DNA of 64,000 nucleotides from an uncultured archaeon (GTDB lineage Archaea > Asgardarchaeota > Thorarchaeia > Thorarchaeales > Thorarchaeaceae), in NCBI GenBank assembly GCA_964610875.1, contig CAZSWP010000002.1, positions 52,531 through 116,530 on the forward strand, given 5' to 3'. A model generated the notes under the pieces. The model did not search any database, had not been told where the DNA came from, and saw only the letters and a program-made list of their open reading frames with translations. The translations under genes and the position numbers were made by a program. Of the stretch, positions 48,221 to 60,050 are shown one piece after another (position 1 is the stretch's first letter; the number at the start of each line of letters is the position of its first letter).

Positions 48221-48410
48221 GGGTTGAGGGCAGCTACAAAAATCCAGGACAAAGATGGACACGTTGTGAAGTAGCTTATATCCTTCGATACGAAATGCTA
48301 TCATAGGTCATCTCACACCTGTATGCTGACCCCACGTAGTTCCGTTCCAGTGCCGGTCTTGGACAGACAAAGCTCCGGTGTCCAGATTTGTCTAGCTCAC
48401 AATGAACGGT
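48221..48410 (+). mobile_element. ~187-bp non-coding GGT-bounded element (intergenic copy)
   Basis: Last 45 nt are 40/45 identical to 58992-59036; same left-end architecture; GGT-to-GGT spacing 186 versus 187; CTTATAT at the same offset. Confidence 0.8.
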
Positions 48411-58341: not shown

Positions 58342-58761
58342 ATGAGTGATAAACTAGTTTTTCCTTCGCCCGAATGGATAGCAAAATATTCAGAATTGTT
58401 GAATGATAATGATGATTACAAAGACGCCGCCAAGACATGGGAAGGCGATTTTGTCTTTGAGGTTGAAGCAGACGGAAAAGTGGTAAAAGAACCAATTAGA
58501 TTCTATCTAGACCTCTGGCATGGAGATTGCCGTGAAGCCAGAATGGCAACGCCAGATGATAATCCTGAATTCATCTACAAAGGACCTTACAAGAATTGGA
58601 AATTGTTACTTGATGGAAAGATAGACCCGATAAAAGGCCTGATGTCTCGTAAGTTTGCACTAGGTCAAGGGGATATGGGGAAGATTATGCGTGCGACGAA
58701 GGCTGCAGCCGAACTTGTAGCCACAGCAGCAAAAGTACCAACCAAATTTCTGGACGAATAG
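58342..58761 (+). CDS. SCP2 sterol/lipid-binding domain protein (tandem paralog)
   Basis: FPSPEW, WEGDFVFEV, LDLWHG.C, GKIDPIKGLM..KF.L..GDM..IMR. Confidence 0.9.
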   Translation: MSDKLVFPSPEWIAKYSELLNDNDDYKDAAKTWEGDFVFEVEADGKVVKEPIRFYLDLWHGDCREARMATPDDNPEFIYKGPYKNWKLLLDGKIDPIKGLMSRKFALGQGDMGKIMRATKAAAELVATAAKVPTKFLDE

Positions 58762-58777
58762 AACTGAGTTAAGCAAA

Positions 58778-60050
58778 ATGGCACAGTTAGACACAGAACT
58801 ACTTGATATCTTAGATATTGAACATCCCATTATTCAGGGTGGAATGGGTTTCGTACAGCTCCCAGAATTCCAGACAGACCTAGACATCAGTGTATAGGCA
58901 CTTATATACTCCTGACAAGAACAACTTGGTGAGGGTGTATTGACACACGAACGTGCTCTCACAAAGCCATTCCCAGTACCGCTCCTGGGAGGACAATGCT
59001 CTGGTGTCCAGAATTGTCCAGCTTACAATGAACGGTCCATACAAGACAGAATCGTTGGCAATAGCAGTAGCTAATGCAGGAGCCCTTGGAGCCATCAGTA
59101 GTATAGGGATGGCTGCGACTCTACTTCCTGAAGCTGCTCCAATAGACGCACAGAGATTATTTGGAGATGACCCACCCATAATCATCCTTGAGAAATCAAT
59201 CGAAGCTGTAACTAAAGGAGTGAAAGGAAGGGGAGGAATATTTGGAGTCAATGTGCCTGTCGCATCGGAGTTCATTCTTGCCTCAGAAATGTTCGTTAAA
59301 CAGACTATAGAGTCAATTCAATCGGATTCGGATATTGAACGGAGTCTAAGGGTTCTTATCACGTCTGCAGGAAATCCTACACCATGGAGCAAAGTCAAGA
59401 AATATGGATTGATTTGGATTCATGTTGTGCCATCAGTATATCATGCGAAAAAAGCCGAAAAAGCAGGGGCGGACATAATCGTCGCATCTGGACATGAAGG
59501 TGGTGCGCATATTTCATGGGACCCTGTCCATTCAATGGTATTGGTACCAGCAGTTGCCAAAGCTGTTGATGTTCCAGTGGTTGCGGCAGGGGGATTTTGT
59601 GATGGTGCGACTCTCGCCGCAGCACTTTGCCTTGGAGCTGTTGGAGTACAGATGGGAACTAGATTCATTGCAACACAAGAGAGTGACTTTGAACCCATTT
59701 GGAAGGAAGCCATCCTGAAAAGAGAGGAGAGGGAAACACTTGCTGGTAGAGGTCTCTTTGGACCTATGAGATTTGTCAGAAATAAAAGAGCTGAACAAAT
59801 TGTTGAGAAAACGTTGGAAGATGTCCCAAGATTCTATCTCGGGGAACCTGTCGAATCTAATGAAGCTATTTTGAATCTTGAGAGAGAAGGATTTGATGAC
59901 CTAATTGATGCCAAGGATGAAACAGCCTTGATGTTTGGTGGAGAATGTGTAGGTAGAATTACTGATTTACCAACTGTACAAAATCTTGTTGAAAGCATCA
60001 TTTCCGAGGCTTCTTTCGTTTTACAATCCATGCCCAAGCATGTAAAATGA
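58778..60050 (+). pseudogene. Nitronate monooxygenase/FabK-family flavoprotein interrupted by a 187-bp insertion
   Basis: MAQLDTELLDILDIEHPIIQGGMG (58778-58849) and PYKTESLAIAVANAGALG... (59037-60050) join in frame to give 361 aa; GHEGGAH, AAGGF.DG, GVQMGTRF are intact. Confidence 0.85.
58846..59036 (+). mobile_element. ~187-bp non-coding GGT-bounded element inserted in the NMO/FabK gene
   Basis: GGT at 58847-49 and 59034-36; imperfect subterminal inverted repeats; homologous to 48221-48410. Confidence 0.85.

Follow-up and report, generated by a model that had tools for sequence, protein, structure and literature searches.

A gene-less mini-element, most probably of the IS607 family, splits an NMO gene in an Asgard archaeal genome and resembles a stand-alone guide RNA cassette

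Introduction

How does a gene in a conserved archaeal operon come to be split by 187 nucleotides of apparently structured sequence, and what kind of genetic element is the insert? This question is raised by an NMO/FabK-like gene within a stretch of 64,000 nucleotides (the window, whose positions are used for all coordinates given without a contig name) from the metagenome-assembled genome of an uncultured member of the Thorarchaeota. An earlier note on this DNA recognized that removal of the insert would mend the gene, and offered three interpretations: an mRNA intron, an RNA-guided mini-element akin to bridge RNA or seekRNA systems, or an ordinary MITE that knocks out its host gene. We conclude with considerable confidence that the insert is an IS607-family MITE of this genome. 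This assignment draws on the anatomy of the insert, its family of copies, the full-length parent elements that carry the same ends, and the covariation present in its RNA module.

Results

The insert divides a syntenic NMO gene and is masked by annotation

The reading frame that opens at ATG 58778, MAQLDTELLDILDIEHPIIQGGMG, reads CCC ATT ATT CAG GGT GGA ATG GGT up to position 58849, then continues for 15 codons inside the element before a TAG stop codon is reached (58895-97). This frame aligns with the N-termini of 11 orthologs, in agreement with the choice of ATG 58778 as the true start of the gene in the earlier note. A second frame, open from 58953, reads ...GGT CCA TAC AAG... and carries a complete NMO domain (Pfam PF03060, E = 1.8e-45) ahead of the stop codon that ends at 60050. 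Deletion of 58850-59036 (187 nt) produces a 361-aa ORF with a single terminal stop and no other lesion, as had been predicted, and the restored junction, QGGMG followed by PYKTESLAIAVANAGALG (QGGMG-PYKTES), is the same in the 11 orthologs from related genomes, which carry QGGMG-PYKTE uninterrupted, and in one paralog from the same genome.

58778..58849, + strand: 5′ part of the NMO/FabK-like gene, comprising codons 1-24 (...PIIQGGMG), from translation and alignment with the N-termini of 11 orthologs
58846..58849, + strand: GGGT target motif left of the element, with the proposed GG crossover core; putative TnpB TAM
58850..59036, + strand: 187-nt non-autonomous element, very probably an IS607-family MITE, from copy comparison; 100% identical to G000:C3:143843-144029
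59037..60050, + strand: 3′ part of the NMO gene, comprising codons 25-361 and the stop codon, no further lesion, from Pfam NMO and ortholog alignment

The neighboring genes encode two SCP2 proteins, an Fe-ADH and an AOR, which bears out the operon setting proposed earlier. The same order recurs around the orthologs in related genomes, such that the interrupted NMO gene occupies the syntenic position. No terminal branch in the tree is shorter than that of the interrupted gene, which thus is not longer than those of its orthologs. The paralog, which is 73-75% identical, is intact and non-syntenic (C3:18247-19245). It adjoins a large TnpB-like ORF (a 625-aa frame at C3:15854-17731, within G000:C3:15854-19266) that does not carry the transposon ends of the mini-element.

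The ATG near the end of the element (59028) shares the frame of the NMO codons that follow it, and gene-calling programs start there. The public entry for this gene (P0003) is accordingly a 340-aa protein, MNGPYKTES..., whose start lies inside the terminal sequence ACAATGAACGGT, and this is the only form present in the public protein collection. The window's own 340-aa call is the sole protein in the database that is at least 90% identical, with the next best match at 82%, and the search of this database for an empty-site allele found none. Likewise, no insertion at the same codon was found among the short calls of relatives (P0009, P0021 and P0081), which begin at the methionine of GGMG and have normal-sized gaps to their upstream genes; one of these regions, L057, reads straight through.

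Initiation at ATG 59028 was considered as a means of rescue. The resulting product would lose residues 1-23 and, with them, the conserved PIIQGGM strand; it is therefore expected to be inactive, and rescue is judged unlikely. We consider it very likely that the insertion is a knockout of the operon's NMO gene. The lack of any other lesion, the short terminal branch and the existence of a sister copy with 100% identity together point to a very recent insertion event. Speculatively, a rightward promoter in the element (see below) might continue to supply transcripts of ADH and AOR, which lie downstream. Thus a conserved SCP2-SCP2-NMO-ADH-AOR operon of a Thorarchaeota genome holds a broken NMO gene, and automatic annotation masks the disruption because public calls start the protein at an ATG within the transposon end.

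The insert belongs to a large family of copies with fixed ends

A search with the insert against its own genome assembly (G000; 3.75 Mb in 124 contigs designated C, 95% complete, archaeal, TBP genes present) returned 51 BLAST hits. A motif scan combined with alignment recovered 42 full-length copies, a covariance model of the 3′ module gave 61 hits, and we place the genome copy number at about 50-60. Copies are mostly 185-189 nt in length, except for one subfamily of 217 nt, and identity between subfamilies ranges from 70 to 100%. Five members, 99-100% identical and with unrelated flanks, make up the subfamily of the NMO copy, to which the copy at C3:143843-144029 is a perfect match and the three others are 99% identical.

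The boundaries of these copies are highly regular. The tetranucleotide GGGT lies immediately to the left of about 40 of the 42 full-length copies, and the right terminus is CGGT in 39 of the 42, with the remaining ones one base off; the base that follows is free. There is no target duplication, the two junctions are asymmetric yet related, and the right flank is variable. Because GGT is common to both junctions, the boundary of the element is ambiguous by up to 3 nt. The earlier note had taken this shared GGT as a recombination core, and it is essentially the (G)GG core at which IS607 serine transposases recombine, plus one base. Members of the IS607 family likewise have no terminal inverted repeats, make no target duplication, use a (G)GG target, carry GG at their own termini and have short subterminal repeats that are bound by TnpA (PMC6188088).

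58870..58886, + strand: CCAGACA and CTAGACA, the subterminal repeats of the left end, 10 bp apart; putative sites of TnpA binding
59005..59021, + strand: right-end subterminal repeats, two TGTCCAG 10 bp apart, inverted relative to the left-end repeats
59025..59036, + strand: near-invariant terminus ACAATGAACGGT, including ATG 59028, from the copy alignment
48225..48410, + strand: second, diverged family copy in the window, 186 nt

The left-end CYAGACA repeats are kept in all subfamilies and in the left ends of both parent elements described below. No long terminal inverted repeats are present. The paired ends noted earlier do exist as an end-to-end pairing, but this pairing is weak and barely covaries in the family alignment. 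The second copy in the window follows CCAAGGGT, and its virtual excision lengthens a 137-aa frame such that it crosses the insertion point.

When virtual excision was applied to all copies, long ORFs were restored at no fewer than a dozen sites, with the element in either orientation, and several further genes of this genome appear to be split by the mini-element family. ORFs of 270-547 aa are restored across seven of these sites, five with the element in sense and two in antisense orientation:

G000:C31:31953-32140: ORF-restoring copy
G000:C4:15242-15430: ORF-restoring copy
G000:C39:1548-1734: ORF-restoring copy
G000:C7:26800-26983: ORF-restoring copy
G000:C2:119179-119366: ORF-restoring copy
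G000:C9:76075-76261: ORF-restoring copy
G000:C12:48663-48848: ORF-restoring copy

The family also extends beyond this genome. Among 80 other genomes from this taxonomic family, 43 contain its 3′ module, and these represent 11 of 15 other genera. Two further genera yielded complete mini-elements that follow GGGT and carry the TATA box.

Parent elements that share the ends of the mini-element encode an IS607-type transposase and TnpB

By scanning for the left-end motif and for a variant of the right end, we located two elements of about 8.6 kb on contig C18 that have MITE-like ends and consist of tnpA, a giant ORF and tnpB.

G000:C18:15800-25000 (L017): first parent, C18a
G000:C18:60300-67782 (L018): second, diverged parent; the element runs from C18:60599 to the contig end
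L017 6710-8905, + strand: parent TnpB, 731 aa, with a Cas12f/TnpB TNB domain
L017 1020-6536, minus strand: giant ORF between tnpA and tnpB, 1,838 aa
L018 972-6266, minus strand: giant ORF between tnpA and tnpB, 1,764 aa

The variant right end of C18a, ACAATCAACGGT, is located 25 nt past the stop codon of the 731-aa TnpB ORF (C18:22509-24704), and its left end follows GGGT about 8.6 kb upstream of this right end. The left ends of the MITEs are identical to that of the first parent at 33-37 of 45 positions, and to that of the second at 29-33 of 45. Directly inside the C18a left end lies a gene (L017 419-1039) whose 206-aa product combines a MerR-type HTH at its N-terminus with the catalytic domain of a resolvase. 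The serine TnpA proteins of the two parents (204-206 aa, HTH_17/MerR plus Resolvase) have the architecture of IS607 TnpA, and their genes are the only ones in the assembly with a resolvase domain. The second parent has the same gene order, in which tnpA is followed by the 1,764-aa ORF on the opposite strand and then by tnpB.

In the parent TnpB, the RuvC-like motifs GADRG, YFENL and HADVNAARNI (D/E/D) and two CxxC pairs are readable. The protein is approximately twice the usual size, and only its last ~150 residues align to TnpB/Cas12f/TranC structures, which leaves the N-terminal ~500 residues outside the alignment. The two giant ORFs have no match in Pfam or among PDB sequences. They are 39% identical over ~1,680 aa, and on the basis of this similarity between the copies of both parents we predict that the ORF is a conserved passenger of the parent transposon.

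More parental-type right ends are located at contig ends, and for this reason further parental copies have probably been collapsed in the assembly. An all-against-all BLAST of the 3-kb stretches upstream of right ends found no longer autonomous copy directly adjacent to them, and the seven additional TnpB-like genes that the genome contains have ends that differ from those of the mini-element. A solo motif resembling the left end at C51:16339 is no more than a remnant.

The 3′ portion of the element is a probable RNA module with covarying helices and a pseudoknot

Within the 3′ ~110 nt of the insert, an alignment of 23 diverged copies reveals four covarying helices, including a pseudoknot. The three internal hairpins pointed out in the earlier note (GTGAGGG/CTCTCAC, TCCCAG/CTGGGA and GGACA/TGTCC, the last of which extends to GGACAAT/ATTGTCC) are real and correspond to P1, Pb and the pseudoknot helix. 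The TATA box that had been recognized at 58901 is conserved in the family alignment as well.

58901..58908, + strand: TATA-like box CTTATATA, kept in all subfamilies and in the copies of relatives
58929..58962, + strand: helix P1 hairpin (GTGAGGG ... CTCTCAC), from covariation
58962..59003, + strand: helix Pa, CAAAGC (58962-67) with GCTCTG (58998-59003), which encloses Pb
58971..58990, + strand: hairpin Pb, TCCCAG (58971-76) with CTGGGA (58985-90)
58991..59019, + strand: pseudoknot helix, GGACAAT (58991-97) with ATTGTCC (59013-19)
59037..59056, + strand: right flank as the putative guide of a read-through transcript, by analogy with TnpB/omegaRNA biology

An invariant AGG at the start of P1 is situated about 26 nt 3′ of the TATA box, which is the usual spacing between an archaeal TATA box and the start of transcription. 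The transcript is thus predicted to begin ~26 nt past the box, near 58929-58933.

Several measures support these helices. The cells of the alignment assigned to pairs are paired in 87% of cases, compared to 31-41% when the partners are slid, and the observed covariation, with 12 pairs changed on both sides, was reached in 0 of 500 shuffles. Both partners have changed in three pairs of Pa and in two of Pb, helices in which 96% and 93% of the cells, respectively, are paired, and the pseudoknot shows compensatory changes in four of its seven pairs. Moreover, the G-U pairs fit only the + strand of the element, as many of them would be C-A on the opposite strand. These counts represent few independent events, because compensatory changes are shared within subfamilies, and TnpA binding sites could account for part of the 3′ conservation instead of RNA function. 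Folding of the single sequence is not significant for either strand (z = -0.45 and -1.47), and the structure comes from the family alignment only.

The module is probably also related to the parent elements. Its covariance model (R1) matches C18:24616-24729, which ends 25 nt past the tnpB stop codon, from end to end with 37.7 bits, where the alignment is confident only for the 3′ ~65 nt, which comprise hairpin Pb, an arm of the pseudoknot and the tail. The 5′ half of the module does not align to the parent right end. Given that P1 and Pa are not conserved in the C18 right end, the true parent of the NMO copy's subfamily may be unassembled or lost. From its sequence features, the insert looks like a stand-alone omegaRNA cassette placed behind a TATA promoter.

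At position 59001, the NMO copy and its 100% identical twin carry a C, whereas the three 99% identical sisters carry a T. The C creates an A-C mismatch in helix Pa, and the scaffold of the NMO copy may be slightly damaged.

Alternative explanations for the insert

One alternative is that the 187 nucleotides are an RNA-level intron, removed from the NMO transcript by bulge-helix-bulge (BHB) processing, by IStron-like self-splicing or in some other way, such that the gene remains functional. Removal is exact with regard to frame, the element lies in sense orientation in an otherwise intact gene, and IS607 IStrons provide a precedent in which the DNA donor joint is the same as the spliced exon joint (10.1101/2023.11.20.567912). 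However, not one of the 14 registers compatible with a 187-nt excision gives a BHB with flanking helices, and the sole register with a 4-bp center has one G-C and three G-U pairs with mismatched neighbors. No Rfam family, including group I introns, was detected on either strand of 58750-59120 at E <= 10, except for one noise match (E = 2.4), and the insert is under the usual size of a group I intron. Clear genic copies, as defined by strict criteria, are found 8 times in sense and 3 times in antisense, but 56% sense is expected from the counts of GGGT and ACCC (p = 0.2, not significant), and many copies are antisense or lie between genes. With DNA transposition able to explain every feature, we regard the intron proposal of the earlier note as very improbable. 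We give equally long odds to the specific idea that the NMO insert is still removed from its transcript through an unrecognized small self-splicing fold or a host activity that acts on the structure of the element; if true, IS607 mini-elements would be 'stealth' insertions, similar to IStrons without a group I ribozyme. In a milder version, scarless excision by TnpA could alternate with re-cutting of the emptied site by TnpB and omegaRNA in a polyploid cell to yield a reversible switch.

The possibility that the element resembles the bridge RNAs or seekRNAs of IS110/IS1111, whose internal loops pair with target and donor flanks to program recombination, was suggested by the structured RNA with its own promoter and by two complementarities in the NMO copy, which match the flanks at 8 of 9 (TGTATTGAC, 58936-44) and 7 of 7 (CCATTCC, 58967-73) positions. 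These matches exist as described, but are at chance level when the 42 copies are considered: the best core-to-flank complementarity averages 6.64 on the left and 6.60 on the right, versus 6.63 and 6.65 for a flank-swapped null. Furthermore, four near-identical sister copies place the same core beside unrelated flanks. A bridge-RNA-like reading therefore loses its basis, the target is fixed as GGGT, and the parents, which share these ends, have genes for a serine recombinase and TnpB rather than for a DEDD recombinase. Of all the explanations considered, this is the one to which we assign essentially no probability. The broader proposal of an RNA-guided mini-element fares better, since a scaffold like that of TnpB omegaRNAs is present with the right flank as its putative guide, while the target and donor loops of bridge RNAs and seekRNAs are absent. 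Somewhat less improbable than an intron, albeit still very unlikely, is an IS200/IS605-type PATE that is moved as single-stranded DNA by a Y1 (HUH) TnpA and inserts 3′ of GGGT with CGGT as its right end. The asymmetric junctions, where a fixed tetranucleotide in the left flank is matched by a related terminus on the right, do resemble those of IS608 and ISDra2, as does the subterminal hairpin close to the right end. There is, however, no Y1_Tnp (PF01797) match in the 95%-complete assembly, and in the full-length elements that share these ends, a serine TnpA of IS607 type is encoded directly inside the left end. Finally, a high-copy repeat could have been wrongly threaded into the NMO gene during assembly. 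Many contigs end inside copies, and in public reads, where the region occurs in three DNA runs from one microbial-mat study, the Logan contigs (3-5x) all stop at the repeat and bridge neither junction. No Logan contig joins 58849 to 59037 either, and none holds a circle junction; at this low depth, with contigs stopping at the repeat, these results are uninformative either way. The search of public runs turned up no RNA data for this organism. Misassembly is nonetheless very unlikely, and in our estimate more so than an intron, because the two halves of one gene flank exactly one element length, at the canonical GGGT target and with canonically oriented ends. The interpretation as an ordinary MITE knockout is right with regard to the kind of event.

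Discussion

A model for insertion and retention of the mini-element

For the IS607-family MITE that we favor, we infer that transposition depends on the C18 TnpA, and that the element is transcribed and its RNA loaded onto TnpB. The ~8.6-kb parents would supply the serine transposase in trans, which would recombine a circularized form of the element with GGGT in NMO codons M23-G24. Exchange would occur across a short shared core without target duplication, and excision would regenerate the NMO gene exactly. The data fit a GG core or a GT core equally well. The near-identical copies at unrelated sites are consistent with such mobilization.

The cargo of the element would comprise subterminal TnpA sites in two sets, a TATA promoter of the archaeal type and a pseudoknotted RNA scaffold of ~110 nt, whose 3′ ~65 nt are likely homologous to the region that overlaps the 3′ end of the parent tnpB. 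Transcription would pass through the right end into the flank to generate an omegaRNA with the guide CCATACAAGACAG... If this RNA were to act with the parent TnpB, it would cut the emptied site (GGGT plus guide, or GGGT plus CCATACAAGACAGAATCG for the NMO gene) and thereby promote retention of the element. The occupied site, wherein CGGT precedes the flank, would not be a target for TnpB.

An Asgard archaeal lineage would thus host dozens of mini-elements that combine a promoter with a guide scaffold and that derive from an IS607/TnpB transposon, with the module present in more than half of the genomes sampled from the taxonomic family. They might serve as a natural test bed for the question of whether ORF-less elements can provide guides that load TnpB in trans, and for a large archaeal TnpB they offer numerous naturally occurring versions of the scaffold that differ by compensatory changes.

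Comparison with known systems

BHB introns are known in protein-coding genes of archaea, such as the crenarchaeal cbf5 intron. As with these introns, the insert interrupts an archaeal protein gene and its removal restores the frame, but its junctions have no BHB and it is multicopy mobile DNA with transposon ends. IStrons, which unite a group I intron with an IS605 or IS607 element, provide a similar picture of an IS607-type element that lies in a gene in sense orientation and whose removal at the boundaries restores the frame. Unlike IStrons, the element described here has no detectable group I ribozyme, is too short, and shows nothing that suggests splicing.

The closest systems are the IS607 insertion sequences (H. 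pylori IS607, M. tuberculosis IS1535 and Sulfolobus ISC1926; Chen et al. 2018, PMC6188088) and their mini-IS derivatives. Common to these and the present family are the absence of target duplications and long inverted repeats, the subterminal repeats, the (G)GG target and the GG at the transposon end, and the C18 parents share with them a TnpA built from a MerR-like HTH and a serine recombinase as well as a tnpB gene at the right end. What differs is that the mini-element is a natural, gene-less derivative of 187 nt that exists in about 50-60 copies and has a target extended to GGGT. Its ~8.6-kb parents, found in an Asgard host, are distinguished by the 1,764-1,838-aa ORF between tnpA and tnpB and by an oversized TnpB of 731 aa.

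With regard to RNA, the closest parallels are the TnpB omegaRNAs (reRNAs) and the ORF-less PATE or mini-elements, such as those of Geobacillus IS605 and of the IS607-type CboIStron (10.1101/2023.11.20.567912). For CboIStron, TGGG is both the transposase target and the TnpB TAM, and the donor joint left by excision is scarless (10.1101/2023.11.20.567912). The thorarchaeal module is likewise a predicted pseudoknotted RNA that ends exactly at the right end and has the flank as a putative guide; its left-end target motif would double as the TAM (GGGT here, TGGG in CboIStron), and scarless excision would recreate a cleavable site. In contrast to omegaRNAs that are processed from tnpB mRNA, it has its own conserved archaeal TATA promoter, and unlike CboIStron it has no group I intron, with an RNA function that is suggested by covariation only. 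Mini-elements of this design have already been described in bacteria, and the gain offered by the thorarchaeal family is therefore one of scope and not of kind.
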